From assembly GCF_964355755.1 (NCBI RefSeq), contig NC_092676.1, positions 3,635,888-3,699,887 of the forward strand: a stretch of 64,000 nt of DNA, written 5' to 3'. Below are positions 1 to 64,000 of this stretch, piece by piece; the stretch's first letter is position 1; each line of letters starts with the position of its first letter. The stretch comes from Antedon mediterranea (taxonomy: Eukaryota; Animalia; Echinodermata). The position numbers and the translations under genes were made by a program. Below the pieces are notes generated by a model. The model saw nothing but the letters and a program-made list of their open reading frames with translations, did no database searches and was not told where the DNA came from.

Positions 1-331
1 GCAAAGAGGCCACGTACGAAAATGGTAAATTGCGTATCAAAGGCATAGCAACTTCTGACAAGGTGACAATTAAGTACGAAAATATTAAAACATCTACGCG
101 TTAGAGAAGATGAGATGAGATAACTAAGATGACGTCACCTAGTTGTGGATGAGCTAATAATGATGCAAACGTGTACGAAAATGTTAAATTATCACCGAGA
201 TTAAGAAGAGTTGGAATCAACATTTCAGATAATCGCGAAGATGACGTAACCAAGGTGCATGCGAGTAAAAAAACGACGTATACGAAAATGTATCGGTACG
301 GACAAAAGCAGTGAAGTGTGCTAAGATATAG
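1..331 (+). pseudogene. 3' end of an array-1 Ig receptor cytoplasmic tail (YEN type), degenerate
   Basis: Translates to KEATYENGKL...KYENIKTSTR*, then NVYENVKLSPRLRR...DNREDDVT and DVYENVSVRTKAVKCAKI* in shifted frames. Homologous to 5360-5593. The 5' part is outside the window. Confidence 0.7.
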
Positions 332-1289
332 AGGAAGCAAAACTGAACCAAACGTACAGAATATTCATACAAAAACAAACAATGAAAACTGCACTAACGC
401 ATATTATCATATAGACTTGTTTATGAAGTGTTCAATACCTAAATTAGAGGTTTATACCAGGTATGATATATTTAGTATTGATGTTTTTATTAGTGAAAAT
501 GATAACTTTTAACATTTGCAAACTACTGTCCCCAACACGTACAGGGGTGTGACCTAAAAGTATTGTAAGACTAGTATGGGCCATGATACTTCCATGGTAA
601 GAGAAATAGAAAAGTAGGCTAAATATATACGTTGAATTATTATAGCAGAGTATTAAAATATTGTAATTTTGTTTAAGGAAGTAAATCAAAAAATATTATA
701 TTATAAATAATCAACTCTGAGATTAACATTAACCAGGAAAGGGAAGGAAGGAAGTATTAGAAAACAATGCAATATACATGGCTGCAGTCGCGTGCTCAAG
801 TTAGTGTTTACCGACCGAGCAATTGACCGACATAGAGAGATGTAAAGTCGCATTGCAAGCGACTAATAATTAGCAGAATTAAACTGTACAGAAACGAGTA
901 AAGAAAAACAGAATAAAGTTCATCGATAACATACTCTTATTTGGCATGAAATAAGCAACAATAAAATATCGATTATATGCAAGTACACGTGATTGTCCAA
1001 AATGGATTTTCCATGTTTCTATATAAAGCTGCGATTGTATACGCCATTAGATTTCTATATAAATATAAATATAATTTAATTATTAAACTTTAAGCAAGAA
1101 CTTATATATATTGATCGATATTTACACGTTGCAAATTAGTAATTTTGTAAAAATGTATTTAATAAATATTTTGCTTTAAGTCTATAATTTTTTACTGTAT
1201 ATTTATAACTGCAAAGTTAACGGACAAAAACCTCGCATAAATCACTTGAATTGAGAGGTATAGAGAAATTGAACAGTACATTGTTAATT

Positions 1290-1480
1290 TTTTTTTAATA
1301 GTTAATAGACTTTTATTTCGCATCTTTCTTTCTTTGTTTAAATGAAATCTGAAAATTGGACCCCATTGGAAATAAGTTTGCTTTTTTGTCGACTTAATGG
1401 GTTATCCAGGTATTCTTTTAATACATTGTATATTTTAACTTTTTATGTATGAATATCGAATAAAATCAATCAATCAATCA
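1290..1480 (+). repeat. Retroelement 3' tail ending in AATAAA-(TCAA)n
   Basis: 1358-1480 is the near reverse complement of 27079-27205 and ends in a microsatellite tail. The left boundary is approximate. Confidence 0.55.
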
Positions 1481-1886
1481 ATTTGACATTTTTGTATATT
1501 AATAGGCATGTGTTTTGTAACTTTTAAAGGTTACTTTATTATTACTTGTATTAATTTTTAATGTAACCGAGTAAATTACGTAATTTATTGTTTTATGACA
1601 TACAATACAGGAAATAAATTCAGACTTATGTTTTTATTTTACAGAGAATAAATAAATAGTATCAGATATCACAAATGTGTGAAGAAATACATTAAAAATA
1701 TTATTTTATTCTCTCAGCTTGAGTGTACTACTTACAGTACGCTCATGTAAATATATATTTAATTGAATATGTATAAGTAATTGTTTCTGTAATTGATTAT
1801 TATAAGAGAGCAGACAAATTAAACTTAATTTAAAGTAAATTTTTCCAAATGTTATTGTACTTGTTTGTTGATTAAGGAACAAATGA

Positions 1887-2324
1887 ATGGAAAGGGCACC
1901 AGTTGAGATCAACGTTAACGAGAATAAGAAAGAAAGTTGTAAAAAAAAAAATGAATATGACTGTGTAAAATCAGCAGACAATCGAAACGATAAAATGACT
2001 GAAACAGACAGTGAAAATGAGTATGATTATGTGGAAACATCAGGCATAGGCGTCAAAGAAGGCTCTGCAGAATACATTGAGGTTGTTGATGACAACACTG
2101 ATGCTGATTCCATGATTGCACTACTAAAAACAGAAACTAGTAGGCCTACTGTGGCTGAGTACAATGATGCTTCAATACAACAAAACTATATTTCAATAAA
2201 TATTAGAGAAAATGATAAAGAGGCTGAGTTCGAAAACAGTAAATTACATCGTGTTAAAGGTATCTTCGACGTATACGAAAACGCATCTGTACGCACAAAA
2301 CCACTGAAGTCTGCAAGGAAATAG
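1887..2324 (+). pseudogene. Orphan Ig-receptor cytoplasmic-tail fragment without ectodomain or TM
   Basis: NEYDYVETS, EAEFENSKLH and DVYENASVRTKPLKSARK align with the tail of 4160-5593. No Ig or TM sequence lies upstream. Confidence 0.7.
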
Positions 2325-3381
2325 AAGAAGCAAAACAGAACCAAACGTAAGATCAAAAACAACGATGAAAACTTCACCAAACAATACATTACATCAAATA
2401 CCTCTTTAAAAAAATAAATATCTGCCATTTCAGTTTCCCAGGTATGATCTATTAAGGCTTTTGTTAAGTGAACTTTCACTTTTTCCAAAATACTCATAAT
2501 TTGACAAAATAAGCAATAATGACTAAATCATACGTTGAAATGTACAGTAATTAATTGGTTTGATGTTTAAGAAAATAAAATGAAATAAATTAGAGAGATG
2601 AATATTAACCAGAAAATAGAAGAGTAGGAAGTCCTAGAAAATAATTAGCAAGAATTGAAATCGTACAGGAAAAAAAGTCAGCAAACATAAGCATTCTAAC
2701 GTGATCGTCAAAATGGTCTATGATGGTTCTCTCTAAAACCTCGACTATACGTCATTAGATTTATATAAATATAATAATTATAACTAATAAACTTTAAGCA
2801 AGAACTAAATTGTTAAGTTATTTACACGTTACAAGTTTCTAGTTTTGTGAATATACATTTAATAAAATAATTGTACCAGGTATTACGAACGTTGGAAAGA
2901 TAGCTATCTTACACTTTAGTAATTTTTATTAAAAGATAGAGATAAACTTTAACTTCAGCATTTATCAAGTATTCCTGTCGTGTGTGGCAGCAGACGGCAA
3001 CTTACTTAAAAAGAAAAAAAGAAACAGGAATGATCCAACGTTTTAGTTTTAAGTTACTCTATAGGGGGCGGTATGCATTACTAGTTTTACCTATAGAATG
3101 GAATATGTTAAAATAACTGTATACAGGTTACGTAGTTGATGCTAATATCACTTTAGCAGGGGTACGCTACAATACAGTTCACAGTAATCTGAGTGTTTAA
3201 ACAGAGTATATTGTACCAACAACGTGCACATGTGAGCATCTACAAAAAGTATTATAAAGGCTAATTTTAAGTCTAAGTATAATTGAATTTTGTATTATTA
3301 TTTCTGGACATTTTTGATCCATACAATCTGGAATTTGATGGGTAAGGTAATCGATATTGAAGTTTAGCAGACGTGTTTATA

Positions 3382-5593
3382 ATGGCTCATCATCAACATT
3401 GTACATTGCTGATGGTTATATTGTATACTATTTTTTACTGCTGCTGTGCACAAACCTATACTTTTACAAAACATCCACAATCGGTTCTCGTTACGGAAGG
3501 ACAAACAGCAACGTTGTCGTGTGAATGGACAACAGCACCAACACATGACGTTTTCTGGTCTTTTTTTCGCTCGTGTTGGTACGCCTAAATTAATTGAAAG
3601 TTTAACATTAAAATACAATGTAACAAGTAAAGCAACATCTTCAAATCTTTCCATTTTTAATGTTGATTCTGATGACGTAGGAAGCTTAAGATACAGATGT
3701 GATATCTTGGATAGTGATTCATACAGTCTTTCTGAACTTGCTTCTGTAGTGCTAGCAGAAATAACGTGCAATCCAGAGAATGGCAATGGTGAGATAGGAA
3801 CAACGCTGACATGTTCTTATATTTTGTCTCATCCGTTAGATAATGTTGATTTATTATGGTTCAGATATGGAAGTGTAATTGAATCACATCACAAACAAAT
3901 GCATGTTTTAGAATCAAGGGTTTTGACTGCCGAAGACGATGGAGTTGTATTTACTTGTAAAGCCACAATGGGATCTCAAGTGATAGGAACTTGTGAAACT
4001 ACTCCGCTAATATTGAACATAGATGCAGAGATTGAACAATAACCACCAGGTCCACTTCAGGTTGGTGATAGCTTTAATCTCACGTGCTTTGGGAAAGGTA
4101 GTCCTGATCCTGGTAATTATATTTATGAATGGATATGGAACAACATTTCTGTAGATTCTTTGAAAAGTAATTGGCGATTTGCAATAAGCAATGTATTTAC
4201 TGTGAAGAGTGCGACAACCAAAGACAACGGTGAAATAGTTACTTGTACTGTCAGTCGTGTTGGACGTGACAGCAGTACAGAGAGCTATACAATAAACATT
4301 TCGGAGATTCCATTGAGTATATTAACTACACCTTTGCAATATTCTGTTACAGACCTATTACTATCAACCAATGTCTCGGACAATGAACCTCCAAAACTAA
4401 CGATTGTCGTTGGTGTCGTAGCTCTTGCGATTTTTATAACAGCAATTATAATTTACTTTTTACACAGAAGGCGCAAGAGCAATCAGTACGCCAACAAAAC
4501 AAAACCAATGAGCCTACAATTACAGCCAAATTGTGGTCACATGGAACAACAAATTACATTTTTTGACAACAGAATTATACAAACTTCAACAAACCTCGAC
4601 AACATGCGTGAAACAGCTTTGACCCTAGATGGTCGAATGTTAGAGTCTAACACACAAGATACCAGTATGCATGAAAACCCTACCGTGTCAGCACAGGATA
4701 CAATAAAAGAAAAGTATTATATGGGATCGGTAGACATTCACAACAATGGAATCACTACAACATGCAACAAAAATGAATGTGATAGTGTGGATTTAACAAC
4801 AGACAAGCAGAGTACTAAAATGGCAGCTGAAAGAGACAGCCAAAATGACTGTGATTTTGTGGAGTCAGCAACAGACAATCACAACATTGAAACCATCACA
4901 TCAGGTAGCGTAAATGAGTATGATTATGTGGAAACATCATGCAATGGCGCTAGAGTGAAGACTATCAGAAAAAACATTGAACTTGCCGATGACAACAGCA
5001 ATTTTCCCAAGAGAAAGCCACTGAAAACAGAGAATAATAGGCCTACAACGACTAAGTACAATAATGATTCAATGTCACAAGCAGATGTTTCCAGAAATGC
5101 CAGAGCTAATGATGAATTGGCCAAAAACTTGCATCACCTCAAAGATATCACAAGCATGGCAACATCTGACGACCAGAACATGTATGAAAATGTTAAAATG
5201 CCGCGATTGAGGAAAGATAAAGTACTGCTTATAGTTACAGGCAGTAGAGAGGATGACGTCACCCCAGTACACGACGCGAATACAAAACCCGATACAAACG
5301 TGTACGAAAATGCTTCGATGTCAAAAACATGTGTTTCCAGAAATAACAGAACCAACGATAAAGAGGCTGAGTATGAAAACAGTAAACTGCATCTTAAAGA
5401 TATCACAAGCATGACAACATCTGACGACCAGAACATGTACGAAAATGTGAAAAGTGTGTTACCGAGACTGAGAAAAGATGGAGTAACCGTTATGGACAAC
5501 CGCGAGGATGACGTCACCATAGTGCACGCGAATACACATGTGTACGAAAATGCACCAATACGAACAAAAGCAGTGAAGTCTGCTAAGAAATAA
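3382..5593 (+). pseudogene. Single-exon 3-Ig transmembrane receptor with YEN/YDY tail, disrupted
   Basis: ATG at 3382, +1 frameshift in the T7 run 3561-3567, and TAA at 4040-4042 where paralogs have TCA (QSPPG). The ORFs 3446 and 4160 are in the same frame. TM is IVVGVVALAIFITAIIIYFL, followed by HRRRK. Confidence 0.85.
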
Positions 5594-5764
5594 AAGAAGA
5601 AAAACAGAACCAAACGTACAAAATATTCATACAAATACAAACAATAAGGGGTGTGACTTATTGTCAAGTAGTAAGTATTGTAAGACTAGTACGGACCATG
5701 ACAGTTCCATGCTACGATAAATAGAAAAGTAGGCTAAATATATACGTTAACATCTTGAATTATT

Positions 5765-8083
5765 TTGCTGGAGAAAACATCAGGCTCATTGATGATCTCC
5801 TATACTATACTGTTGAAGAAGATGTGAGTAGAGAGTTCATGTTTAAGGTGTTGGAAAAATTTAACTTTGGAAAGTCCTTTTGTAAATGGGTAAAAACAAT
5901 TTATAAAAACACAGAATGTGTCATTGTTAACAATGGATGGGTATCTGAAAATTTTGAAATGAAATGTGGTATACGACAAGGCTGTCCCTTGCCAGCATTA
6001 CTATTTCTATTGGTTGTAGAAACAATGGCAAGTAACCTAAGAAATGATCAACATTATAATGGAATTTTGCTACCTGGTCCTACAAAAGAGGAAGAACGTA
6101 TAGCACAACTTGCAGATGATACAGTATTGTTTGCAAGAAACGAAAAAAGTATAAAAAGAGGTCTATTCATTGTTAATAATTTCTGTGAAGTATCTGGTTT
6201 AAGCTTAAACAAAAACAAAACTAGTGCCATGTGGATTGGTAAAAATAGATTTTAAAAAGATAAACCTTTTAATTTAAACTGGGTCACTGATCCTATAAAA
6301 ATCTTAGGAATATACTTAGGTATGATGCTGAATTATGTAAAGAATTAAACTGGGCTAAAAAATTAACAAACCTTGAAAAAGTATTAAACTCTTGGAAAGC
6401 AAGGAATCTTACAATTTTTGGAAAAGTCACAGTTTTAAAAAGTTTAGCTTTAGCCCCATTAATTTACAACGCATCCATAATTGATGTGCCTGAAAGTTTC
6501 GTTAAAAGGATAACACAATTGTCTTATGAATTTCTTTGGGATGGAAAAAATGAAAAGATAAAAAGAAAAACATTAATTGGTAATATAATTGAGGGTGGCA
6601 TTAATATGCCAGATTTTTCTACTCAAGTTAAAACACTTAAAATCACATGGGTAAAGAGAATTCTTTGTAGAAAACATGTAAAATGGAAAGTACTTCCACT
6701 GTATTATATAAACAAGATTGGAAGTGATTATATGGTGTTTAATATGTCAAACTAGAATATAAGAAAGGGCAGTTTTTTGTTAGCTAAGATGCCCTTATTT
6801 TATTCAAATGTAATAAAAAGTTGTGCAGAATTTAATACAAATATAAACAGTAAGGCAAAATCTTATAATAATGTTATACAAGAAAAACCTATGGGGTAAT
6901 AATGAAATTGTTTGTAAAAACACTACTTTGTTTTATAAAACGTGGAGTAATGTAGGTTTCAATCAGATCAATGATTTAGTAAGAATCAATAGACTAATGA
7001 ACCCACATGAAATGTTATCAAAATTAAATGTCAAAAGAAACTGGCTTAGTGAATATGCTACACTTATGCAAGCTATTCCTAAAGGTTGGCTGGATTTAAT
7101 AAAAAATTATAATGGAGATAGTGTTAAATTAAATTCAGATGATTATAAAATAAATAAGATATTTCAGATGAAAACAAAACAGATATATTCAAGTTTTATA
7201 GAAGGTATGTTTGTTGCTCCTATTACTATTCCCAAATGGGAAAAAGAAATTGATATTGAAATTACAAACTGGTTTGATATTTGGTCAAGAAAAGTAAAAA
7301 ATGAGAAAAACAAAAAATATGCACAACTTAATTACAAATTACTTCTTAGAATTTTACCAACACATTTACAATTATATAAATGGAATATTAAGAACACAAA
7401 AAAATGTGAGTTATGTGATGTAACTGAGGATGAAAAGCACATGTTTTTCAAATGTAAAAGCAATGTATTATTATGGAAAAAAATCAATTTTTAAAAAGTT
7501 AGATAATAGTAACTGTTCTTTTGAAGAACTTGTTTTTGGGTCTGAATGCAACATAAAAAAATAAGTTATACTCAATTGCTCTATATTCTATATATAAAAT
7601 AAAAATATTGTCAGAATTAAATAAGTCAGTATGTAAAAACTCATGGATAATGTTTAAAAATATACTTACACAAGAGTATACCATGAAAGTATTTTATTAA
7701 TTGTTTATTTTGAAGGTTACTGTAAATAAAGTAATTTGTACAAAAATGTAAATAGAGCAAATAAAACAGAAAAAAAGAGGAAAAAAGGAAAAAAACAATA
7801 AAAAGAAGTGTAAAAAAAATAGCATGGTAAATGCTATACTCTACAAGCAACTGGTTATTGAGGTGCTTTTGATTTTCCATATTTATTGATATTGTTTTCA
7901 GTTTATATGTAATGTAAATGTGTAAATGATATCTTGCAGAGTTTTTTTAAGATGAAAGGGGAAACTTTATGTCTATGAATGAAAATAGTATATATTTAAA
8001 AAGATAATATACAAACTTAATAAAATTGTTTATTTATGTTTTGAAATGAAATAAAGGTGAGTGAACCTCACAAAAGAGAAAAA
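5765..8083 (+). mobile_element. 5'-truncated L1/Tx1-type LINE (RT and C-terminal zinc knuckle), decayed
   Basis: GIRQGCPL and IAQLADDT RT motifs, CELCDVTEDEKHMFFKC knuckle, AATAAA and A-rich end. 16-bp TSD AACATCTTGAATTATT at 5749-5764 and 8084-8099. Confidence 0.92.
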
Positions 8084-9806
8084 AACATCTTGAATTATTA
8101 TATCAGAAACAAATATTATAAAGTATATATAGCAACATAGGCCTAAGTGTCCTAATTTGACATCATTTGTTTAAATAGATAAAAAAAAAACACAAATATG
8201 AAAGTACGCGTAATCGTCAAAGTGGTCTGTGTTGGTTCTCTATAAAACATCGACTGTAGATTTTATATAAATATAATAATTATAGATAATAAACTTTAAG
8301 GAACAACTTAATTATTGACAAACCAGAAAAGAGAAGGTACGAAGTATTATAAAATAGTTAGCAAGAATTGAATAGTACAGGAAATAAAGTAAGCAAACAT
8401 AGGTTACCTAACACGTGATCGTCAAAATGGTGTCTATGACGGTTCTCTCTAAAACCTCGACTAATACGTCATTAGAAAATAATAAGCAAGAATTGAAATC
8501 GTTCAGGAAAAAAGTCAAGCCTTCTAACGTGACCGTCAAAATGGTCTATGACGGTTCTCTCTAAAACCTCGACTATACGTCATTATATTTGTATAGGCCT
8601 ATGCATTTAATAAATAAATTGTATCAGATATTACAAACGTTATAAAGAAAATCATCTTGTTCTTTATTATTTTTTTTACTAAAAGATAGCAAACAACTTA
8701 ACTTAATAAAGTTAATGAAGGGAAAACATTGAAAATGAAACGTTTTGATACTTTGTTACTATGTTATTTAAGGAAACATTAAATTATAACCGAGCAATTC
8801 TTTATATAATGTATCTATTATTTAACAAAATGGCGCCTTCAACTTCGTGAAACGAAACAAGTTAGGCGTACATTTTATTTTACGGTAATGTAAATATAGT
8901 AGGCCTACCTTATTCTACAATGAATAGCAAAAATAAATTTCATGGAATTTACAATTATTTGTTTAGAGTATGTAGGCCTAATTGATTGTTATTAGAGGAG
9001 AGGAAACAAATTTAATAAAGTGGATTTTTTCAAATATTTTTATACAAATTAAAGTATTTATTTATTAAGGTAACTGAGAGTAATAGTAATGACAAAAAAT
9101 GATAAAGATTTTGGGAACTAAGAAATTATAGATGGTGAAGGTTACAGCTTGGTTCCTTCAATCAAACACAATATGGGTTTTCTTATTACGAAAAAAAAAC
9201 AAAGAAAGTTCTAAATACTTTCTACACTGTGTAGGCCTACATTTAGAAAATTGCCAAAATTACTGTCTTCAAATGGACTTTGTTTAAAAGATATTTAGAA
9301 GAGTAAAGGATCAAATAATAAATAAATTATTGTTCTTATTAAATGATCAATAATCCAACATATATCTACAGTAATAGGCATTAGTATATAAGAAGTTTTA
9401 TAACTCGTTGACAGCATTGTCTAAATTCAAATAGACTAAAAATAAAGCCTTAAGAAAGAACGAATTTATAAAATATATAATTATAAAAACATGATTAACA
9501 ACCTAATGAACGGAAGAAAAAACAAACAACAAACTAACTAAACATAGCCTATATGGATGAAAAATAAATAAAAAGACATCCGTGGATTTTGTACTACAGA
9601 AAAGTATATTTCAAAAATACATTAAAATAGGAATATACCTCCTCAGCGTTTTAGTATAAAAAAATAACTCAAGGGGGCGGTATACAGTTATACAACTGGA
9701 GTTTTACTTATTTTACAATAATGGAATAAGATTTGTTTACAAAACCTTAGAGCGGATGCGCAGTTATTTCTGTGTATAGCATGTGACCAGGTTTGATGTA
9801 TCAATA

Positions 9807-11767
9807 GGTTCTAGGACACCTACCCCCTAGACAGTTACCCCCCGGATATTTACCACCCGGACAACTACCCCCTTAGGACAACTACCCCCCGGACAACTAC
9901 CCCCCGGACAACTACCCCCTTAGGACAACTACCCCCTTAGGATAACAACCCCCCGGACAACTACCCCCCGGACAACTACCCCCTTAGGACAACTACCCCC
10001 TTAGGATAACTACCCCCCGGTCAACTACCCCCCGGTCAACTACCCCCCCCCCCCCCCAATCCAAAAGTAGACAAACGGTTTCTGTAAAAATGAAATCATA
10101 TGTTTTTAACGGGTGTTTCGAAACTAGAGACCCGAGACCAGAGACCTGACACGAGACCCAATACGAAAAGGGAGACCTATATTTGGGTCTCCCTTTTCGT
10201 ATATTAGGGTCTCCCTTTTCGTATAGTGTGGTCTCTCTTTTCGTATAGTGGGGTCTCCCTTTTCGTATAATTTGGGTCTCCCTTTTCGTATATTTAGGTC
10301 TCCCTTTTCGTATATTAGGGTCTCTCTTTTCGTATAGTAGGGTCTCCCTTTTCGTACGTGGGTCTCTCTTTTCGTATATTTAGGTCTCCCTTTTCGTATT
10401 GGGTCTCGGGTCTCTGGTCTCTGGTCTCGGGTCTCTAGTTTCGAAACACCCGTTTTTAACCGATTATTCTGTTTAACAGCACGCTAGACCCTAGATGTGC
10501 TAGATTTAAAGTACCGTATTTATTGACAAAACGGCCTGGGCTGTTTATTGTTTAGGTGGTTTTTAGGTGGACATTTATTGGAAGAAAGTTGTTTATTCAA
10601 TGGGAGGGGGTATAATCTAATGGAAATAGACGCCGATTATTAATTCCATATGATGTTTCATGGGAGTGACATGATCACCGTTTATTTGAGGGGAATTTAT
10701 TTAAAGATCGCCGTTTATTCGGTGAGTGAACATTGAGGTCAAATATCAAAAGTGATATTATTCTTCAAGTGTACAAAAATACATATATGACAAATTTGAG
10801 ACAAAAATTAATTCTTTTAAGACCAGTGGTTATCGAAGCATTGTCCTGACGCAAACATTATTATTATTATTAGCGAACCCAGTCTTTACAGTAAATACAG
10901 GGAGTACTATATAATACGTTCGACTATCCTATGATCATGTGTGACAATCTTCAGTTTAAACCAGGCTATATTTATGTTCAATCTTTTACTTTTGTTTACA
11001 ATAATGAATAGTAATTCGTCAAAGTAACGAATTAAAATATAGTTATTAATTCCTATTATACACTGTTGCAGAGTCAGGTTGTTGAATGGTCTGGGTGGTA
11101 GTTGTCCGTCCGGGGGGTAGTTGTTCTAAAGGGATAGTTTTCTGGGTGGTAGTTGTCCAGGGGTTAGTTGTCCTACGGAGGTAGTTGTCCTAAAATATTA
11201 TTTGCCCTCGGAGTATTGTCCAGGTCCAGGAGGTAGTTGTCCTACCCGGTATTGTGTCAGAGGTAGTTGTCCGCGGGGTAATTACCCGGGTGGGGGGGGG
11301 GGTTGTCAGGGCGTAATTGTTCCTAGGGGGTAATTGTCCGGGGGTAATTGTTCCTAGGGGGTAATTGTCCGGGGGGTAGTTGTCCAGGGGTTAGTTGTCC
11401 TACGGAGGTAGTTGTCCTAAAAGATTATTTTCCCTCGGAGTATTGTCCAGGAAGTAGTTGTCCTACGGGGAGTATTGTGTCAGAGGTAGTTGTCCGGGGG
11501 GTAATTGTCCGGGGGGTAATTGTCCGGGGGGTAAATGTCCGGGGGGTAATTGTTCCTAGGGGGTAAATGTCCGGGGGGTAGTTGTCCGGGGGGTAGTTGT
11601 CCTAAGGGGGTAGTTGTCCTAAGGGGGTAGTTGTCCGGGGGGTATTTGTCCGGGGGGTAGTTGTCCTAAAGGGGTAGTTGTCCTAAGGGGGTAGTGGTCC
11701 AGGTGGTGGTTGTCCGGGGGGTAGTTTTCCGGGTGGTAAATGTCCAGGGGGTGAATATCCGGATACG
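9807..11767. mobile_element. Non-autonomous foldback/MULE-like DNA element with minisatellite arms
   Basis: GGACAACTACCCCC arrays at 9807-10050 are inverted relative to GGGGGTAGTTGTCC arrays at 11090-11767. 9-bp TSD GTATCAATA at 9798-9806 and 11768-11776. Confidence 0.85.
10111..10451. mobile_element. MITE nested in the foldback element
   Basis: TIR GGGTGTTTCGAAACTAGAGACCCGAGACCAGAGACC, internal GGGTCTCCCTTTTCGTATA repeats, 9-bp TSD GTTTTTAAC at 10102-10110 and 10452-10460. Confidence 0.88.
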
Positions 11768-53928: not shown

Positions 53929-55314
53929 ATGAAGATTAACAACATGGATCGTACTGTTTACTTCCTGATAGTATTTGCTTTAACATCTTTTTTTGCTGAG
54001 CTAATTGCTGCTGTGACATCATCAACAACACTGTTGGTCTCTCCAGGCCAGAGTGTGGCACTGCCATGCATTTGTAATAATCTAGATGATGACAACAAAG
54101 TTACATGGAATTATTATCGAAGTGCTGAGGAGAAAATCACTATTTCAAAAGACAGAAATGTCTTGTCAACAAGTATTGATAAACTGGTTGAAAGTTACTC
54201 AATTACAGTTGGTGAAAGCTGTGCAATTGTAGGTGATGGAAAGAATTTCACGCTTTGTTTCAAAATACCAAGTTTAATAGATTTTAGGGGTTTATCTATT
54301 AGTATCAAAATAGATTATACATGTTCTGTATCTAAATCAAGCAACACAACTGCAGAAGAAACAACTTTCAGTGTAACCATACAGAAACCAACATATATTC
54401 CTTCAATGTGTTCGGAAAAGACTTCAACGGTTGTTATTGGGGAAACATTATCATTAGGCTGTTTACCCCCAGCGACAAATTATGTTACAACAAATTTAAC
54501 ATTGAACAAACACGTTTTACCAACCACAAATTCTCAAGCTTACAACTTGACTGTAACAAAAGAACATCATGATGCAGAGTTTGTATGTGAATCAAGAAAT
54601 AAAGGAAAAATTGAGATAATATGTACTGTAGGCCCGCTCATTGTCAACTACAAACCAGAGATTAACATCACACAAGTGAATCCACTAGCATTCCACTGTA
54701 CTGCAGAGGCTAGACCAACCGTTAATCAGACAAACTGGATTGTGGAGCCTGAAATTCTTCAAGAAAATGTTAAGATATTAAATGATATATTATTCTTCCC
54801 TGAAGAATTAGACAATGATGCTTTTTTAGAATGCTGGGCAGAAAATACAGTTGGAAAAACAACAGAAAAGTTTTACGTTTCAAAGTTAAACAATGATCCA
54901 GATTTTTACATTGTCATTATCATTATTATAATCATTGTCATTGTTTTTGGCATTATTATCATTGTAATCTACTACCGCAAGTGTAAGAGAAACCAAACAC
55001 AGAAAATTGACAATGATGATACCGGGAATGATACCCGTGTTGTGGAGAGGATAGGCAGACAGGAAAATGGATACCAAGTACCAGAAGAACATGTCACTGT
55101 CAGGCAAAATTATCAACAGTTACAAAAAACGAATATTAAACATGATGAAATGGCTGCAGGTTATGAAAAAATTACGCCGATTGACAAAGGTCAGAGTTCA
55201 AGGGTCATGTCAGATACTTTGGCATACATGACCACTTTTGATGGTAGAGTCACATGGCAACAGGAATCTGTATGTGATGAAACTTACATTGAAATTATTG
55301 ATGATACAAAATAG
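53929..55314 (+). CDS. Intronless 3-Ig TM receptor with Tyr-motif tail (YQVP, YQQL, YEKI, YIEI)
   Basis: Signal peptide, three Cys pairs, poly-Ile TM, basic stop-transfer sequence. Paralog of 56893, 60340 and 62744. Confidence 0.9.
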   Translation: MKINNMDRTVYFLIVFALTSFFAELIAAVTSSTTLLVSPGQSVALPCICNNLDDDNKVTWNYYRSAEEKITISKDRNVLSTSIDKLVESYSITVGESCAIVGDGKNFTLCFKIPSLIDFRGLSISIKIDYTCSVSKSSNTTAEETTFSVTIQKPTYIPSMCSEKTSTVVIGETLSLGCLPPATNYVTTNLTLNKHVLPTTNSQAYNLTVTKEHHDAEFVCESRNKGKIEIICTVGPLIVNYKPEINITQVNPLAFHCTAEARPTVNQTNWIVEPEILQENVKILNDILFFPEELDNDAFLECWAENTVGKTTEKFYVSKLNNDPDFYIVIIIIIIIVIVFGIIIIVIYYRKCKRNQTQKIDNDDTGNDTRVVERIGRQENGYQVPEEHVTVRQNYQQLQKTNIKHDEMAAGYEKITPIDKGQSSRVMSDTLAYMTTFDGRVTWQQESVCDETYIEIIDDTK

Positions 55315-55789
55315 GAAACGTTTTTGGCAAATGTGTAAAAGGAAATCCTAGTAACAATAAAAAATGTTGACACAAAACTGGTTATAACAAAATTTCAAAA
55401 TAATTGAACCGTGTTTCCAGTATCAATAAGTTCCACGACATTCAACCTTCAGAACAAAGGAATTAGAAATCCTGAACTTCATACATTCCTGACATACAAA
55501 CAATTAATTCTGACATCAAACCCTAAAATATCACTAATATTTTGTAAATATAAGCATGTTAATTCTTTGCAGTTTATTGTTATTCTAAAATAAATGCTTC
55601 AACTTGATATATAATAATTAAAAATAAAAATAATAAATAATAATAATATAGTATACAAAATACTAACATTTTGTAAATTGTAAATAATTCTAGTATACTT
55701 GTCTTTTAGATTAAAATTTTGTCAATTTGCAAAATATAACACTTTTTTTTCAAAAATGTATGTGTTATTGCATACGGTATTACCTTCAG

Positions 55790-56490
55790 CACACACAATA
55801 AATAAAACATTAAATTGTAAATAATTTTATACTTTTGTCTTTTTTATATTAACGTTTTATACTATACGTTTTTCTAAACAAATTGTTATATTGGATATTC
55901 TTACAGCACACCTATTTCCGCATCATCATGTATAGTATCATTTTTATATTCTAACACTTCCAGGAAATCTGACCATAAAAAATCATGATTTTCTTAACTT
56001 TTTTTTATAATATATTCACCTTTGTATAGACTGAATAAACCAGTTTAGTTTTATTTCATGAAAATATTCTTAACAGCATTTCAAATACAACATGGAATTT
56101 TGAGTTTATATGACGCAGTAAGTTACTGCAGTAAACTGCAGTAGAATAATTATGACATGGTCTCTAAATTCTGACATGGCATGTAACTAAATAATTTTAT
56201 ACTTTTGTTTAACATTTTGTAATATTTTAGATATTTAATATTAACGATCTTTTCCAAAAAATAAAAACACACCTATTTCGGCATCATCATGTATTGTATC
56301 CTATTCTACAGCATATCAACCCTTCCCATTTAAAATAACAGGAAATCATTAACGAACTGATATGAACGAAATCATGATTTTCTTATTTTTTATGATATAT
56401 TTACCTTTCTATGGAATGCATTTAAACCAGTTTAGGTTCATTTCATGAAAATATTCTTTACATTATTTCAAATACAGCATGGAATTTTGA
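55790..56490. repeat. Local tandem duplication of about 360 bp
   Basis: CACACCTATTTC..CATCATCATGTA..AAATCATGATTTTCTTA..TTTCATGAAAATATTCTTTA occurs twice. Confidence 0.65.
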
Positions 56491-56892
56491 AATTTATTTG
56501 AGTTTATATGATGTGTACTACTGTACCACAGAATATGAATTATAACACGCAAAAAAAAGAGAGAAATAAAACATATACTTTGCAAATACTTTGCTTTTGT
56601 TTGATTTTTTATTATCGTTTTGTCAAAAAATAGACAAGTACTGTAGTCCGGCAGTAAGCTGATCATTATGGTTGTGAGTTCAATTGTCAGATACTGTACC
56701 AGCCAATCAGTGCATGATACATAATTATCAAATGAATATTCAATAGTTTTAGTAAGGAACTTGTTGAAAATTCAACACAGTATCGTTTTGTCCAAGCCTA
56801 AGCTTCCTTGTACACTGTACACACTGGTTAAAAAAATATTTATATTTTTCATTTACTTGGATTTTTGTAAACTGAATATAGTCTCTTTCAAG

Positions 56893-58371
56893 ATGGATTG
56901 TGATAATGTTTTCTTCTTGGTTGTATTGACTTTATTGTCTTCATCTTCATTTGCTGTTGAGTTTGTCACTAGGCCACCTTTAACAGTCACTGTCTATCAC
57001 GGTCAGAATGTATCACTGCCTTGTGCTTTTGAGAATTTGATTCTAAATCACCACATAGTAGAATGGACTTATTTGCCAAGTTATGACATCCAGTACAATA
57101 TTTCAAAGGACAGAAATATTTTGTTAACAAGTATTGACAACATTGCTGAAAGTTACTTAATTGTAGGTGATAAAGAGAATTTCACACTTTTTATCAAAAT
57201 ACCAAGAATAATAGATTTTGAATCATCTTCTAGTATTAGCACTTATTATAGATGTTCTGTGTTTGAACCAAGCAAAGATGTCCCTGTTGCAACAGCAAAT
57301 TCAACTGTTATTATACAACCAATATTTAGAGATCCAGTTTGTTTAAAAATCAACAAACCTGTTGTCATTGGAGAAACATTATCATTAGGATGTTACTCAA
57401 CAGAGACATATTATGACATTAAAACAATTTTAAAAGTGAACAAACAAGTTTTACATACTAATTATTATGTTGGGCCCTTCAATGTTTACAACTTGACTGT
57501 AACAAAAGAACACCATAATGCAGTGTTTGTATGTGAATCAAGAAGAAAGGAAACAAATGAGACCAGAAGTTGCTATATTGGTCCAATCACTGTCAACTAC
57601 AAACCAGAGATTAACATCACAAAAATATCACCACTCGAATACCACTGTACTGCAGAGGCTAGACCTCCTGTTAATGAAAAAGTCTGGATTGTGGAATCTA
57701 GTGTTCCTGAAGATCACTTTACTATTTTGAATGGGATTTTGAAATTTACTGAATTGCCAAAGTTTGGTTCTGAAATAACATGTGAAGCGGGAAATCTTTT
57801 GGGAGAAGATTCCAAGTCAATGATCATTCCATTGTTGAAAAATATTGATGGAGAAAAAATCAGAAATGATGAAGAAATAATAAGAAATAATGAAGAAATG
57901 ATAAACAATGATAGTGCTAGAATTTACATGATCTTATTATTTGTTGTTATAACTATTAACATCCTTTTTGCAATTGGCATTTGCTACCATAAATATAAAA
58001 AGAAACAAAATAATAACATTACTGATGATGACTATGATGATACCACTAAAAGGCAGGAGAGACAAGATGAAGATGAATATCAAATACCTGACAAAAGTAC
58101 CAGTCAACATTACCAATCATTAAAATTAGAAAAAGTTGCTACTAATAATGATACTACTTATGAAACTACTTTCACAATTGACAAAGGTCAGAGTGCAAGT
58201 GTCATGCCAGATATATACATGAGCTCTATTGATGGTGGACAAAAGATAGAAACTGTGTATGATACAGCTTATGCTGAATGTGCTGTTAACGAAAATGATG
58301 GCACAAAATATGAAGTCATTCCTGATATTAAAGAATGTAGAAAAGACATCGGGCGAAGTTTATGTGAATAA
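56893..58371 (+). CDS. Intronless 3-Ig TM receptor; its YVNNP repeat extension (to 58828) is out of frame by 1 nt
   Basis: ATG 56893 (MDCDNVFFLVVLTLLSSSSFA), TM IYMILLFVVITINILFAIGICY, tail YDDT, YQIP, YQSL, YETT, YEVI. Confidence 0.88.
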   Translation: MDCDNVFFLVVLTLLSSSSFAVEFVTRPPLTVTVYHGQNVSLPCAFENLILNHHIVEWTYLPSYDIQYNISKDRNILLTSIDNIAESYLIVGDKENFTLFIKIPRIIDFESSSSISTYYRCSVFEPSKDVPVATANSTVIIQPIFRDPVCLKINKPVVIGETLSLGCYSTETYYDIKTILKVNKQVLHTNYYVGPFNVYNLTVTKEHHNAVFVCESRRKETNETRSCYIGPITVNYKPEINITKISPLEYHCTAEARPPVNEKVWIVESSVPEDHFTILNGILKFTELPKFGSEITCEAGNLLGEDSKSMIIPLLKNIDGEKIRNDEEIIRNNEEMINNDSARIYMILLFVVITINILFAIGICYHKYKKKQNNNITDDDYDDTTKRQERQDEDEYQIPDKSTSQHYQSLKLEKVATNNDTTYETTFTIDKGQSASVMPDIYMSSIDGGQKIETVYDTAYAECAVNENDGTKYEVIPDIKECRKDIGRSLCE

Positions 58372-58800
58372 TCCACGTGAAAGGAAGCAACAACCTAAAG
58401 GACCTGAATGTAATGAACCACATATAGAAATTGTTGTTGACAAACAAGACATTACAAAACATGCTGATGTTGAAAACACATCCACACCTAGTGCAGTTTA
58501 TGTGAATAATCCACATGTCAGGAAACGACAACCTAAAGGACCTGTATGTGATGAACCACACAAAGAAATTGTTGATGACAAACAAGACATTACAAAACAT
58601 GCTGATGTTGAAAACACATCCACACCTAGTGCAGTTTATGTGAATAATCCACATGTCAGGAAACAACAACCTAAAGGACCTGAATGTGATGAACCACACA
58701 TAGAAATTGTTGCTGACAAACAAGACATCACAAAATATGTCGATGTTGAAAACACTTCCACATCCAGTTCTATTTATGTCAATAATCCGCATGTTAGAAT
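58340..58800 (+). repeat. 138-nt (46-aa) tandem repeat, about 3.3 units, four YVNNP motifs
   Basis: GTTTATGTGAATAATCC at 58358, 58496 and 58634, with a variant near 58772. Confidence 0.9.
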
Positions 58801-60339
58801 ACAGCCATCTACAAACATTCAGAAATAGTGAAAATGGTCATTATTGGACACCCCACGCCATTGATAGCTGTTTATTGAGACAGCTCCTACACAGGGATGT
58901 TATAATTGCTTTTATACTGGCATTAGTTAATGGATAATATCAATTTTGCGCAGAAAACATTTACGCTCTAAAAAAAAACTGTTGTTACTTGGTATAATTA
59001 ATAGCTTGTTTAAACTACATTTTGTAAAGAAAGAATCTTACTGCTGCTGTTAATACTTTCCACACTAGTATAGTAAATCAGTATAAATTATAATAGAAAG
59101 TATAAAATTTAAATAAAAATAATCAAGTAATAACATGCTGTAAATATGCATATTAATATTCTCAGATGTATTTTGATTTTCATTATTAATTTACTATTCT
59201 TTGATTATTATCCTATTTAACGTTTTTAACCCTTATAACAGTAATCATGTGACGCCATTTGGACCAATCATGTTCTTGTATTTAATAGGCTATGTAATAT
59301 AATTACTATGTATCACTAGAATTATAAACCTGGAGGAAATAAAGACGACTCGGAAATTTGTCGGACCATTATTACCATTTTAGGATGCTGATTCCAAATG
59401 TTATATGGGCGGTTTAGGGTGGTGTTTTTCTATTTAATATGTAAACTGTAATTCTCAATTTCCACTTTATGAGGCAGTTACTACAATAAACAGGTTAAAG
59501 AGCAAACAAAATGCTTACAGTTACAACTGCATTAGGACAATTTAGACATCCTACATGCTATATATTTACTACAATACAATAAAGTAAAAACGAGTCATAA
59601 AATCATTCCATCAATTTTTTAACTTTTCTAACTTTCTTACAAAACAATGACATAAAGAAGGATTTTTTAATACAAAAAGTATCAACTATTATGAATCACT
59701 GTGTTGACATTAAAAGGTCTGAAAAAGACACATTCTTCCTGAAAGTGAGTCAGAACTTTGAAATACAGAGGGCGCTGTTTTATATAAAACCACAAGACCA
59801 TGACTATTCAATAACTGACAGTATTACACTTGTTCACCACTTTCTTTCTAAAAGAAAATATTGCTATTAGAATTTCTGTCTACAAAAGTCAATGTACTAT
59901 CATGGAGGTACAGTATGATATGACAATACTATTATTATATTATTATACCTCCATGCTATTTAAACTCTTCAGACAAAAATGGCAAAGGATGAAAAAAAAG
60001 TGCAATTTCACTTTTCTTGCTGCTTTATTATGTTGACTGAACCTGATCAGCTTTCAGCCAATGAGTGAACAGCAGAGGATTATCAATACCACTCAAACCT
60101 TTCACTACTGCAATCACGGGATCTCATGGTTGACCGAGTTTGATCAACTCTAAGCCAATGAGTGAACAGCATAGGATTATCAATTAATATGCATTACTTC
60201 CATTATTTTTACAATGAATTTCCGCTAGTACTCATATAGTATTTCCTATAATACATTCATGTTGGTTTGAAATCAATACATGTTACTTCCTTAAATTTAA
60301 ATTGTTTATACAATCAACAACTTTCTCGAAGAAACAAAC

Positions 60340-62250
60340 ATGATGCACTCTGGTAATGTTTACTTACTGATTGTATTGACTTTAATATCTTTGTTTTCAT
60401 CATATGAGTCAAAGTTTGTTACTAGGCCATCATCCCCATTAACTGTTTTTCCAGGTCAGATTCTTTCTCTGCCATGTGTTTTAAAGAATGTCTTACCAAA
60501 TAACTCTGTAGTTCGATGGACTTATCGGAAATTATATTCAGAAAAATTACAAGTTATTTCAGAGAACAGAATACTAACCAATGATTCTGAAAACAGATTT
60601 GCCGAACATTTATTAATCCTTGGTGAAGGACTAAACTATACTCTACATTTGAAAATACTGAATCAAAGTTCATTACATTTTGGAACATCAACTAGTATCA
60701 GTGTAGATTATTTGTGTTCCATTTTTAAACCAAACATAGGAAATACTGATTCAGTAATTTCAAATATTATTATAAAGAAGTGGACATTTGATGCTCCTAC
60801 ATGCAAAGAAATAAATACAACTGTTGCCAATGGAGATACAATATCATTAGAATGCTTGCCACAATCAACAGATCCAGATGTTACAACAACTTTAACAGTG
60901 AACAAAGGAGCTTTACCTATTAATGGAATCCTCACTGTTTACTACGTAACTGTAACAAAAGAAAATGATACAGTGTTTATATGTGAATCAAGAAGAAAAG
61001 AAACAAATGAGAGAAGAAGTTGCTCTGTAGGTCCAATCACTGTCAACTATAAACCAGAGATTAACATCACACAAATATCACCACTGGAATACCACTGTAC
61101 TGCAGAGGCTAGACCATCTGTTAATAAAACAGTCTGGATTTTGGAAAACGGCAATACCTTAAATTACAGTATCAACATTTCAAATAATGTATTAACATTC
61201 AATGAACCACCTGAAGTTGATCAGCTGACAAATGTAACATGCAAAGGACAAATTGTTGTCGGGACGGCAATAAAAACATTAAGTGTACAAAAGAAATGTC
61301 AATTTGTTGAACCGGATTGTAACTCTCAATATGTTATAAATGTAAATACGACAACATTGGAATGTACTACTAATTGTAAACCTACAATCATCATAACAAC
61401 GCCAGAAATAAAACAAATCATAACTACTAAAGACGGATTATACATTGGACACAATATTAATGTAACAAAAGGTGAACACAATGCAACGTTTATTTGTAGT
61501 TCAAAGAAGAACATTTGTAGAACGATTCCAATACGTGAGATAACGACAACCGTTCCTGTAACACGCAACAGCGCAGATATCGATCAATACACTCAGTCTA
61601 GTATACAAGAACTAATAACCACGGTAAATAACATGTTAATCAAAAACGAGGATGAAACACAAGATAATAATGGTAACTGGATGAATATAATAATTTTGGT
61701 TATTGCAGTAAGTTTAGTATGCTTTTTTGTCATTATTCTTATAATACTTGTTTGTTTATATACACAAAAACAAAAGAAAGTTAAATCAAAAAATGAAACT
61801 ACGACAAAACCTTCACAACAGGAAGACAAGAAGGAGGATTCAATGGTTTTAAACTACGCAATGGGAAACATGGACAAGTATCAGGAAACAGAAAATGAAA
61901 TATACGTAGATGGAAATGAGGTTGATATTAATCAGCCAATCAGAGCGAACGAATTTGAAGATTTGGATGGATATATAGAAAATGAGAATGAAATATACGT
62001 AGATGGAAATGAGGTCTATATTAATCAGCCAATCAGAACGAACGAATTTGACGATTTGGATGGATATATAGAAAATGAGAATGAAATATACGTAGATGGA
62101 AATGAGGTCAATATTAATCAGCAAAGCAGAGTGAACAAATTTGAAAATTTGGATGGATATATAGAAAATGAGAATGAAATATATGTAGATGGAAATAAGG
62201 CTTATGTTAATCAGCCAATCAGAGAAAATGAATTTGAACATTTTGATTAA
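60340..62250 (+). CDS. Intronless 4-Ig TM receptor with a 31-aa Tyr repeat tail
   Basis: Signal, V, two Ig and an extra Ig2-like domain (EPDC..TLEC..NATFICSS), TM IIILVIAVSLVCFFVIILIILVCLY, then ENEIYVDGNEVDINQPIRANEFEDLDGYIEN x4. Confidence 0.9.
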   Translation: MMHSGNVYLLIVLTLISLFSSYESKFVTRPSSPLTVFPGQILSLPCVLKNVLPNNSVVRWTYRKLYSEKLQVISENRILTNDSENRFAEHLLILGEGLNYTLHLKILNQSSLHFGTSTSISVDYLCSIFKPNIGNTDSVISNIIIKKWTFDAPTCKEINTTVANGDTISLECLPQSTDPDVTTTLTVNKGALPINGILTVYYVTVTKENDTVFICESRRKETNERRSCSVGPITVNYKPEINITQISPLEYHCTAEARPSVNKTVWILENGNTLNYSINISNNVLTFNEPPEVDQLTNVTCKGQIVVGTAIKTLSVQKKCQFVEPDCNSQYVINVNTTTLECTTNCKPTIIITTPEIKQIITTKDGLYIGHNINVTKGEHNATFICSSKKNICRTIPIREITTTVPVTRNSADIDQYTQSSIQELITTVNNMLIKNEDETQDNNGNWMNIIILVIAVSLVCFFVIILIILVCLYTQKQKKVKSKNETTTKPSQQEDKKEDSMVLNYAMGNMDKYQETENEIYVDGNEVDINQPIRANEFEDLDGYIENENEIYVDGNEVYINQPIRTNEFDDLDGYIENENEIYVDGNEVNINQQSRVNKFENLDGYIENENEIYVDGNKAYVNQPIRENEFEHFD

Positions 62251-62325
62251 TATATAGAAAATGAGAATGAAATATACATAGATGGAAATGAGGTCGATAT
62301 ATTAATCAGCCAATCAGAGCGAACA
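61891..62325 (+). repeat. 93-nt tandem repeat, about 4.6 units, running past the stop codon
   Basis: AATGAAATATACGTAGATGGAAATGAGG recurs every 93 nt. Confidence 0.9.
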
Positions 62326-62743
62326 TTTTTTAACATTTAACGTTTAATATTCAAAACTTTAAAAAGTTCCTTATTAAATTTACACGCTTACATTGGTTTT
62401 ATTAATTACACAGTATGTCATGAAAACAATGCAATTGGTTAAAATGTTTACACTATGGGGTTACTACAAAATTTTATACACTAGCTACTGTATATCTATG
62501 CCATACAAATATCGAAAATACAAGAAAAACAAAACTGTGTTATGGTTGATCGAGTTTGATTAGCTACCAGATAATGAGTAAAAACTACAGAGTTTTGAAT
62601 GTAAATTGTAAAACTTTCGTTGTATGAGGAACAAGATGCATACTGTAGATGCTACAGTGTATTCTGCACATTCTACTATCGCTGGCTTCAACTACTTTTC
62701 TCTACTCTACCTTTCTACATGATCAAACAACTTTGAAATCAAC

Positions 62744-64000
62744 ATGACTGGAGATTGTGATGTTTTCTTCCTGGTTGTATTGACTTTATTGTCTTCATCT
62801 TCACTTGCTAATGTTGAGTTTGTTACTAAGCCACCATCAAATGTGACTGTCTATCCAGGTCAGAATGTTTCACTGCCTTGTGTTTTTGAGAATTTAATTC
62901 TAAATCACCACATAGTAGAATGGAGTTATTGGCCAAGTTACGAGTATAAGGAGATTATTTCACATGACAGAAATATTTTGTTACCAAGTATTAATAACAT
63001 TGCTGAAAGTTACTCAATTCTAGGTGATGAAATGAATTTCACACTTTTTATCAAAATACCAAGTTCAATAGACTTTAAATCATCTTCTAGTATAAAAACT
63101 GATTATAGATGCTCTGTGTATGAGCTAATCAAAGATGTCCCTATTGAAATAGCAATTTCAACTGTCGTCATACCGAAATATACATTTCATTCTCCAGTGT
63201 GTGGAGCAATCATCAAAACTGTTGTCATGGGAGAAACATTATTATTAGGATGTTGGCCACCAGAGACAGATTATAATGTTACAACAATTTTAACTGTAAA
63301 CAAACAAGTTCTACCTACTACTTATTATAATGGGGGCATTGCTTACAACTTGACTGTAACAAAAGAGTACCATAATGCAGTGTTTGTATGTGAATCGAGA
63401 AGAAAAGAAACAAATGAGACCAGAAGTTGCTCTGTAGGCCCACTCACTGTCAACTACAAACCAGAGATTAACATCACACAGATATCACCACTGGAATACA
63501 TCTGTACTGCAGAGGCTAGACCACCTGTTGATACAACAGTCTGGATTGTGGAATCTAGTGTTCCAGAAGATCACTTTACTATTTCAAATAAGACTTTGAA
63601 ATTTATTAAATTGCCAAAAGTTGGTTCTGAAATAACATGTGAAGCAGGAAATCTTTTGGGAAAAGAATCCAAGTCAATGATCATTCCATTGTTGAACAAT
63701 AATGATGAAGAAAAAATCAAAATTTACATGATCATATTATGCGTTGTAATAACTATTAACATCATTGTTGCAATTGGCGTTTGCTACCTTAAATATAAAA
63801 AGAAACAAAATAATAACAATACTGATGATGACTATGATGATACCACTGAAAGGCAGGAGAGACAAGATGAAGATGAATATCAAATACCTGACAAAAGTAC
63901 CAGTCAACATTACCAATCATTAACATCAGAAACAATGGCTACTAAAAATGATACCACTTATGAAACTGCTTTCACAATTGACAAAGGTCAGAGTGCAAAG
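62744..64000 (+). CDS. Intronless 3-Ig TM receptor, closest paralog of 56893; runs off the window (not in the ORF track)
   Basis: Manual translation MTGDCDVFFLVVLTLLSSSSLANVEFVTKPP..LPC..W..YRC..TM IYMIILCVVITINIIVAIGVCYL..DEYQIPDK..HYQSL, open to base 64000. Confidence 0.9.
   Translation, partial: MTGDCDVFFLVVLTLLSSSSLANVEFVTKPPSNVTVYPGQNVSLPCVFENLILNHHIVEWSYWPSYEYKEIISHDRNILLPSINNIAESYSILGDEMNFTLFIKIPSSIDFKSSSSIKTDYRCSVYELIKDVPIEIAISTVVIPKYTFHSPVCGAIIKTVVMGETLLLGCWPPETDYNVTTILTVNKQVLPTTYYNGGIAYNLTVTKEYHNAVFVCESRRKETNETRSCSVGPLTVNYKPEINITQISPLEYICTAEARPPVDTTVWIVESSVPEDHFTISNKTLKFIKLPKVGSEITCEAGNLLGKESKSMIIPLLNNNDEEKIKIYMIILCVVITINIIVAIGVCYLKYKKKQNNNNTDDDYDDTTERQERQDEDEYQIPDKSTSQHYQSLTSETMATKNDTTYETAFTIDKGQSAK

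Follow-up and report, generated by a model that had tools for sequence, protein, structure and literature searches.

The genome of the feather star Antedon mediterranea contains a stretch of 64,000 nucleotides (contig NC_092676.1, positions 3,635,888 to 3,699,887 of the forward strand; hereafter the window, with positions counted from its first base) in which immunoglobulin (Ig) receptor genes form two arrays, at 1-18524 and 46021-64000. By open reading frame (ORF) listing, tblastn and self-blastn, 12 plus-strand copies were found, comprising six complete single ORFs, one ORF that is cut by the window end (62744) and five clearly broken copies. We regard it as an evenly poised conclusion that these tandem single-frame Ig genes with phosphotyrosine tails constitute a birth-and-death recognition-receptor complex, most probably for the innate recognition of microbes or self. 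The number of copies, their arrangement and the share of broken ones agree with an original prediction made from the sequence alone, which had counted about 12 plus-strand genes or remnants in two arrays, about half of them disrupted. The same prediction had placed all family members on the plus strand. This is true for the 12 copies, but a 13th relative with one intron, located on the minus strand, had been missed. In the following, the receptors of the left array are called subfamily A, those of the right array subfamily B, the gene at 46021 is called C and the minus-strand relative at 24553-22138 D; individual copies are named by their start positions.

Every intact ORF encodes a signal-like N-terminus, Ig domains, one uncharged transmembrane (TM) helix and a tail of 114-222 amino acids with 7-13 tyrosines. 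The intact or open ORFs are 419-636 amino acids long; when the bases of the window were shuffled 30 times, no stop-free run exceeded 170 amino acids. Thus, the single exon that had been claimed for signal, V domain, further Ig domains, TM helix and tyrosine tail was recovered, with the term referring to the coding sequence, which lies in one stop-free genomic frame. The left array contains two intact receptors, 12033-13745 (570 amino acids: signal, V, a second Ig domain (D2) with four cysteines, a third Ig domain (D3), stalk, TM and tail) and 16764-18524 (586 amino acids). In the right array, the divergent intact receptor C (46021-47517, 498 amino acids) has two Ig domains and a 210-residue tail with five Yxx[ILV] motifs. 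It is followed by the intact B receptor 53944-55314 (456 amino acids), by 56893-58828, whose ORF of 492 amino acids ends at 58371 with tail repeats continuing in another frame to 58828, by the intact 60340-62250 (636 amino acids), which has an extra cysteine-bearing segment after D3 and a tail of 31-residue acidic tyrosine repeats, and by 62744-64000, which is open at the window end after the TM helix and 72 tail residues.

The B-F cysteine pair, the C-strand tryptophan, the signal and the single TM helix identify the proteins as type I membrane receptors of the Ig superfamily. Indeed, the Ig folds proposed originally are borne out, by Pfam for A and by AlphaFold and Foldseek for B. The A genes match V-set, I-set and Ig models, and the B genes are weak or silent in Pfam. 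The AlphaFold model of B (predicted local distance difference test, pLDDT, 68.9) predicts a rod of three Ig domains of the V-C-C type, which matched three-Ig V-C-C ectodomains in Foldseek at E 1e-12. The best fold matches were the ectodomains of nectins, Necls, IgLONs and DIPs at 13-20% identity, for instance Necl-4 (Z 13.2, root mean square deviation (rmsd) 5.8, 268 aligned residues), and SIRP-gamma was also among the matches (Z 11.5, rmsd 6.5, 260 aligned). The A model had a pLDDT of 42 and was left out of the fold comparison. The two arrays had been described as containing one kind of receptor. The arrays stand, but A and B are distant subfamilies (hhalign probability 70%, E 4e-5, 24% identity), and in a quick tree B groups with C (support 98), apart from A and D. 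The four cysteines of D2 are present in 34, 34, 33 and 34 of 34 aligned rows, all eight window receptors included, in an alignment that leans towards A because 22 of the rows were picked from A-profile hits. With V, the four-cysteine D2, D3 and TM, the window receptors belong to a wider ambulacrarian three-Ig family.

The tails carry several kinds of tyrosine motifs. Motifs of the immunoreceptor tyrosine-based inhibitory type (ITIMs, [ILVS]xYxx[LVI]) occur in two of the seven intact or open ORFs, 12033 and 16764. Each ends in a pair of them that falls inside its 35 C-terminal residues (shuffle p 0.0005 for 12033 and 0.0018 for 16764). Upstream of the ITIMs, 12033 contains five and 16764 six YxxP motifs (shuffle p 1e-4 and 2e-4). 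ITIMs recruit SHP-type phosphatases, YxxP motifs dock Crk/Nck-type adaptors and YxN motifs Grb2-type adaptors. As judged from sequence, a signalling role of the A receptors is supported because their ITIM and YxxP motifs exceed shuffles and recur in distant echinoderm relatives. The pseudogene 3382-5593 (plus strand), which consists of signal, V with a frameshift, D2, a stop at 4040-4042, D3, TM and a tail of 370 amino acids, belongs to A in its ectodomain (75% DNA identity), whereas its tail is unrelated and contains seven YxN motifs, a number inflated by repeat expansion, and no ITIM. Thus, one A ectodomain type has borne two tail types. The YxN-type tail is shared by two plus-strand remnants, one at 1-330 (YEN-type repeats with in-frame stops, identified by translation and by tblastn to the 3382 tail at E 2e-12; its 5' part would fall outside the window) and a tail-only remnant at 1887-2324 (YDY/YEN type, found by ORF listing and tblastn) that has no ectodomain upstream. 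The B and C tails contain Yxx[ILV] motifs, acidic tyrosine repeats and YVNN repeats. In 56893, four YVNN repeats with a 138-bp unit are located at 58250-58828, one frame off the ORF; this tail frameshift may be an allele, a recent mutation or an assembly error.

How the copies arose can be read from their flanks. All three A genes with a preserved 5' end share a 12-base motif 191-303 bases upstream, which is absent from the rest of the window; several B genes are preceded by a block containing CCAAT. Because these upstream motifs were duplicated along with the genes, the copies were made by tandem duplication of whole genes at the DNA level, and a separate retrotransposition of each copy is ruled out. 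Copies were also altered by deletion, transposon disruption and tail swapping. For instance, the truncated A copy at 13770-15739 (plus strand) starts inside D2 directly behind the 3' untranslated region of 12033, which marks a deletion junction; it is interrupted by a transposon and has lost its second ITIM. The B pseudogene at 48580 to about 53480 (plus strand) has a deleted and frameshifted V, a D2 split by a transposon and a tail with frameshifts and YxN repeats. Moreover, synonymous differences fall at the D2-D3 hinge of B (37/295 vs 161/573). This drop, seen for 60340 compared with 62744 and 56893 (p 1e-4, with tract limits set after inspection of earlier selection results), points to gene conversion at the hinge.

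Searches for relatives gave different pictures for the two subfamilies. The B profile found five proteins among 7996 scored candidates, four from the crinoid Anneissia and one other, at 47-63% identity. SNIP1 (34163-35409, plus strand), an FHA-domain gene with two coding exons between the arrays, serves as synteny anchor and is 100% identical to Antedon mediterranea SNIP1 and 73% to that of Anneissia japonica. Two of the Anneissia B relatives lie on a scaffold of the same size (1,651,227) as that of Anneissia SNIP1, and the accessions of the B gene XP_033106970 and of SNIP1 (XP_033106972) are two numbers apart. The B/SNIP1 locus is thus probably syntenic between Antedon and Anneissia japonica. 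In the tree, the four B ectodomains of Antedon cluster together to the exclusion of three Anneissia copies (97/99). One-to-one orthologs, the finding that would have spoken against the original prediction, are therefore not what was found for B. The tail motif of 60340 is similar to that of Anneissia genes, and a grouping on this basis was not rejected by an approximately unbiased (AU) test (p 0.07).

A close relative of A was not found in a profile search of 1.84 billion representatives, in which long multi-Ig proteins took the top ranks, and a word-indexed search with the 16764 ectodomain scored none of 3598 candidates. None of nine window translations was found by exact look-up in the protein collection. 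The A profile, which covers ectodomain and TM without the tails, gave 424 hits at E 0.001. From the best 150 of these, 24 relatives matching along their length were picked, and ten were looked up; these come from Acanthaster, Asterias, Diadema, Apostichopus, Saccoglossus, two from Anneissia, and three more (among them XP_022110264, XP_071488653, XP_071794978, XP_033121851, XP_033121853, XP_077866871 and PIK56403). After four of the 24 had been dropped for lack of a TM, very short tails or a fused model, an ITIM in the last 70 residues was present in 13 of the 20 relatives with TM and tail, an LxYADL-like first ITIM in eight and a Y[AS]xP motif in nine, all counted without shuffle control. Because the relatives share these motifs though tails were absent from the query, they give independent support to the view that the A tail motifs are old and probably functional. 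XP_033121851 and XP_033121853 have near-adjacent accessions on a second Anneissia scaffold (1,865,526 bp), which thus bears at least two members of the wider family, and more receptor clusters therefore exist in crinoids. Two metagenome scans for genomic loci of relatives that would show their exon structure confirmed none of 119 and none of 253 pattern matches. On the sequence evidence, the window genes arose by expansion within crinoids of a three-Ig family that is more widely present in echinoderms and hemichordates and of which one branch is strongly conserved. A separate observation concerns the protein P0142 (1123 amino acids), which resembles two consecutive three-Ig TM receptors joined into one and suggests that a gene model in another animal has merged tandem copies.

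In the A pair, V is 51% identical compared with 68-75% in D2, D3 and the tail. The ratio of nonsynonymous to synonymous change (omega) of V was 1.23 by counting (confidence interval 0.71-2.41) and 0.86 by likelihood; omega of the tail was 0.36, and V and tail differ in omega (p 0.03). The four B ectodomains have an overall omega of 0.59, with domain-wide values of 0.5-1.0 in most comparisons. Site models that were run with our own code on these four recombining paralogs placed about 5% of the ectodomain codons at omega 9-17 and 35-40% at about 0.13. The comparison of M2a with M1a gave p 2.7e-5 untrimmed and 0.004 and 0.008 with gap-near columns dropped, that of M8 with M8a p 5e-4, and the site test without the converted hinge p 0.014. 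The top sites are 68, 70 and 74 in V and 154 in D2. Sites 68, 70 and 74 follow the C-strand tryptophan and would lie on the C-C' ligand face, in a region modelled at pLDDT of about 60. These results are suggestive of positive selection on the B ectodomain. Together with the tandem paralogs, the Antedon-specific B clade and the 5/12 broken copies, they fit the birth-and-death evolution in an invertebrate that had been proposed; the orthology part of this statement applies to B.

Hints of expression come from one run (X1), which must be RNA because it shows the splice joint 23215-24315 (GT-AG) of D. The D gene (22138-24553, minus strand) encodes 439 amino acids with signal, V, four-cysteine D2, D3, TM and a short tail; its single GT-AG intron (23216-24314) lies in the middle of the V domain, it is transcribed and spliced, and it may represent a conserved founder type of the locus. 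RNA depth relative to DNA depth was 2.9 in the 3' bin of 16764, 0.02-0.27 in non-genic bins and bins of long interspersed nuclear elements and 23-199 in the D exons, in contigs of a single run of unrecorded tissue covering the left array side, whose depth cannot rank genes. These values hint at transcription of 16764 or of a close paralog. No A ORF contains any of the 15 listed splice joints (of 565), though this carries little weight. One contig of X1, an independent RNA sample, has 38 differences in 335 bases to the start of 16764 (5' end), compared with 2/554 and 3/469 in the D exons, and may stem from an allele or a paralog of 16764. Moreover, the DNA runs of one sample reach 6-15x single-copy depth on A ORFs, which exceeds the four A ectodomain copies of the window and hints weakly at additional copies.

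If the genes form a recognition-receptor complex, the N-terminal domains would likely bind variable extracellular ligands, and the tails would become phosphorylated by Src-family kinases. In the two intact A receptors, the tandem ITIMs would then recruit an SHP-type phosphatase and cause inhibition; Crk/Nck-type adaptors would bind to YxxP repeats and Grb2-type adaptors to YxN repeats, and related ectodomains with differing tails would produce distinct signals. As a single exon encodes the entire receptor, diversity would arise from whole-gene duplication, gene conversion and tail repeat expansion, not from exon shuffling or splicing. An immune role has in our judgement an even chance of being correct. 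A more far-reaching proposal is that the genes represent an overlooked echinoderm-hemichordate family of the SIRP/LILR type with conserved tandem-ITIM inhibitory tails, which crinoids would have expanded into a polymorphic intronless recognition complex by re-pairing ectodomains with ITIM, YxxP or YxN tails. Such a paired-receptor system without ITAMs (immunoreceptor tyrosine-based activation motifs) or adaptor-coupled partners would be an echinoderm candidate for missing-self or graft recognition; we consider this unlikely.

Several results weigh against a recognition-receptor complex. ITIM-type tails, which the original prediction had named as typical of comparable receptor complexes, were found in the two intact A genes, but none of the five intact or open B and C tails has an ITIM. 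None of the seven intact or open ORFs has an ITAM or a charged TM residue. Thus, no classical activating partner, as is typical of paired receptors, was found within the window. The likelihood omega of the A V domain is not above 1 (0.86, p 0.63) and the site test on the B V domain alone is non-significant (p 0.24-0.30), so that relaxed constraint explains much of the divergence; moreover, gene conversion can inflate the site tests on recombining paralogs. In the single RNA run, the cover of 12033 (0.10-0.14) equals background. The sea star and urchin members that share the ITIM tail vary little: identity is about 98% within Asterias, and those of Diadema group at >=90%, which is not an arms-race pattern. 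Finally, the top structural matches are adhesion molecules (nectin, Necl and IgLON).

The last point leads to the view that the proteins are adhesion or cell-identity receptors, comparable to a nectin/IgLON/DIP-like code for neural wiring, epithelia or arm regeneration, with duplicates under relaxed constraint and tyrosine tails connected to the cytoskeleton. Nectins, Necls, IgLONs and DIPs are the top fold matches, YxxP clusters suit Crk/Nck cytoskeletal adaptors, conserved orthologs exist in sea star and urchin, and the short-tailed D is strongly transcribed. However, any three-Ig rod matches such folds at 13-20% identity, no PDZ-type C-terminus was recognised when the six complete ORFs were read by eye, and half of the copies are dead and the set is species-specific, unlike developmental adhesion codes; we therefore hold this explanation to be unlikely, albeit of some weight. 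The arrays could also consist for the most part of unstable copies that derive from one or two functional genes, evolve neutrally and drift to pseudogenes in a transposon-rich region. Omega values of 0.5-1.0 across domains in most B comparisons, the frequent deletion junctions, frameshifts and transposon insertions, the nine translations without exact counterpart in the protein collection and the weak RNA cover fit such drift. This explanation is nevertheless quite improbable, given that six long ORFs stayed open at an ectodomain synonymous divergence of up to about 0.8 with all framework cysteines and tryptophans kept, that 35-40% of the B codons evolve at omega of about 0.13 and that the B array persists beside SNIP1 in another crinoid family.

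Two further roles concern recognition of a different kind. In an allorecognition locus like that of Hydractinia Alr, which is marked by extreme allelic polymorphism, V would bind allele-specifically in trans and ITIM tails would block the rejection of self. The clustered V-plus-Ig receptors with divergent tyrosine tails and pseudogenes show the Alr-like layout, and the X1 contig that differs from 16764 could be a divergent allele. However, this contig could equally be a paralog, given the 6-15x depth on A ORFs, and feather stars are solitary and to our knowledge have no natural fusion-rejection reaction. Allorecognition has no specific support here and is, in our view, quite improbable. A role in gamete recognition or reproductive isolation would agree with the rapid species-specific diversification of surface Ig domains and with a weak Izumo-Ig match in Pfam (E 0.002, below cut-off). 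This match reflects generic Ig similarity, and long ITIM tails and many pseudogenes are atypical of gamete ligands; this is the least probable of the roles considered.

Apart from the receptors, the window contains housekeeping genes and mobile elements. Between the arrays, D, BLOC1S3 (exons at 32231-33290, minus strand; Pfam PF15753, E 1e-16 and 9e-9) and SNIP1 are followed by small minus-strand exons at 40466-43061, which belong to one more housekeeping-type gene with GPTMP repeats, possibly GPALPP1. A decayed fragment of a retrotransposon without long terminal repeats lies at 5725-7494 (plus strand; Pfam RVT_1 E 2e-15, zf-RVT E 4e-7). The transposon in D2 of the B pseudogene is a DNA element of 2974 bp (48944-51917) with TAG...CTA ends, terminal inverted repeats of about 600 bp and a 3-bp target duplication, which we take to resemble Academ elements. 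The element of 833 bp (14230-15062) inside the truncated A copy has terminal inverted repeats, is non-autonomous and has deep coverage in DNA runs. A family of short palindromic elements is present in six copies (19142-19311, 36060-36221, 37606-37744, 43381-43519, 48119-48280 and 51036-51190) and has very high depth in DNA and RNA runs. Just upstream of 12033, at 9812-11752, inverted arrays of a 15-16 bp G-rich/C-rich repeat flank a 22-bp repeat; this region looks like a foldback element.

In the full-text literature that was searched, with most subscription journals outside its coverage, we found no account of such a complex in echinoderms. The statement that this is not a described family thus stands in this respect, but the genes do belong to the wider echinoderm-hemichordate three-Ig family. 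Papers from 2006 on the sea urchin genome and its immune genes reportedly mention a small cluster of V-type Ig receptor genes, and the echinoderm immune expansions that have been studied belong to other families. Since B barely scores in Pfam and the translations are absent from the protein collection, such families are easily missed in annotation. Vertebrates, a tunicate and a hydroid are known to have clusters of ITIM-bearing Ig receptors. If the window genes encode coelomocyte receptors, they would fill the echinoderm gap and, as named single-exon genes that are easy to amplify, would offer candidates for the inhibitory recognition of self in a lineage of basal deuterostomes. Moreover, the one-exon coding layout is unusual in the Ig superfamily and alters how such a complex can diversify.

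Among vertebrate systems, SIRP, LILR/KIR and teleost NITR receptors combine a V-type ligand domain with tandem terminal ITIMs and birth-and-death clusters. The window differs from them in that it has no C1-set match, no FGxG J-like motif, no short-tailed partner with a charged TM and no exon-per-domain structure, the latter being ruled out by the single-ORF coding sequences. SIRPs consist of V plus two C1-set domains with a J-like motif; membership is ruled out because there is no C1-set Pfam match at E 0.1 and no FGxG in any of the seven intact or open receptors. NITRs have a VJ-type V domain and an I domain with six cysteines, and the missing FGxG and the four cysteines of D2 exclude them. 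Siglecs and CD22 use an F-strand arginine for sialic acid and a non-canonical V disulfide. Atlas look-alikes of 56893 were Siglec/CD22-like clusters (0.93-0.95), but the canonical B-F cysteine pair and D, S or T after the F-strand cysteine rule out this membership. The three-Ig V-C-C ectodomain and the best fold matches are shared with nectins, Necls and PVR, of which PVR bears an ITIM and evolves fast (PMC7286890). Nectins and Necls are defined by a V-C-C ectodomain plus a PDZ and/or band 4.1 motif (PMC7286890). The window receptors differ in their 13-18% identity, the four-cysteine D2, the lack of a recognised PDZ or band 4.1 motif and the clustered intronless copies.

The domain order is shared with unnamed echinoderm-hemichordate receptors with signal, V, four-cysteine D2, D3, TM and tyrosine tail, several of which have the YAKP motif and the tandem ITIMs that mark the A genes; they bear automatic names only, and they are 22-28% identical to A. 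In Hydractinia Alr and in Botryllus, clustered Ig receptors with ITIMs and pseudogenes serve recognition (10.1101/2022.03.04.482883; PMC12582321). The Alr complex resembles the window in several ways: its single-pass receptors are clustered and combine V-like with additional Ig domains, their tails have diverged strongly and bear ITIMs in a smaller part of the genes, pseudogenes are frequent, and recombination occurs at the level of domains (bioRxiv 10.1101/2022.03.04.482883). However, Alr genes have an own exon per domain, mostly an Fn3-like region and in many cases ITAMs, whereas the window receptors have their whole coding sequence in one frame, no Fn3 Pfam match and no ITAM; the single ORF and the missing Fn3 match rule out membership. 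The fester coreceptors (FcoR) of Botryllus are likewise Ig receptors of an invertebrate deuterostome with ITIMs, paired C-terminal tyrosine motifs, intergenic recombination and copy-number change, but they also have Sushi domains, many exons, splice-based motif switching and pairing with fester genes, none of which was seen here (PMC12582321). The Antedon complex most likely functions as clustered Ig recognition receptors do in vertebrates, Botryllus and Hydractinia, yet it is a member of none of these systems; distinctive are its one-exon coding layout, the four-cysteine second domain and the mix of ITIM, YxxP and YxN tails.

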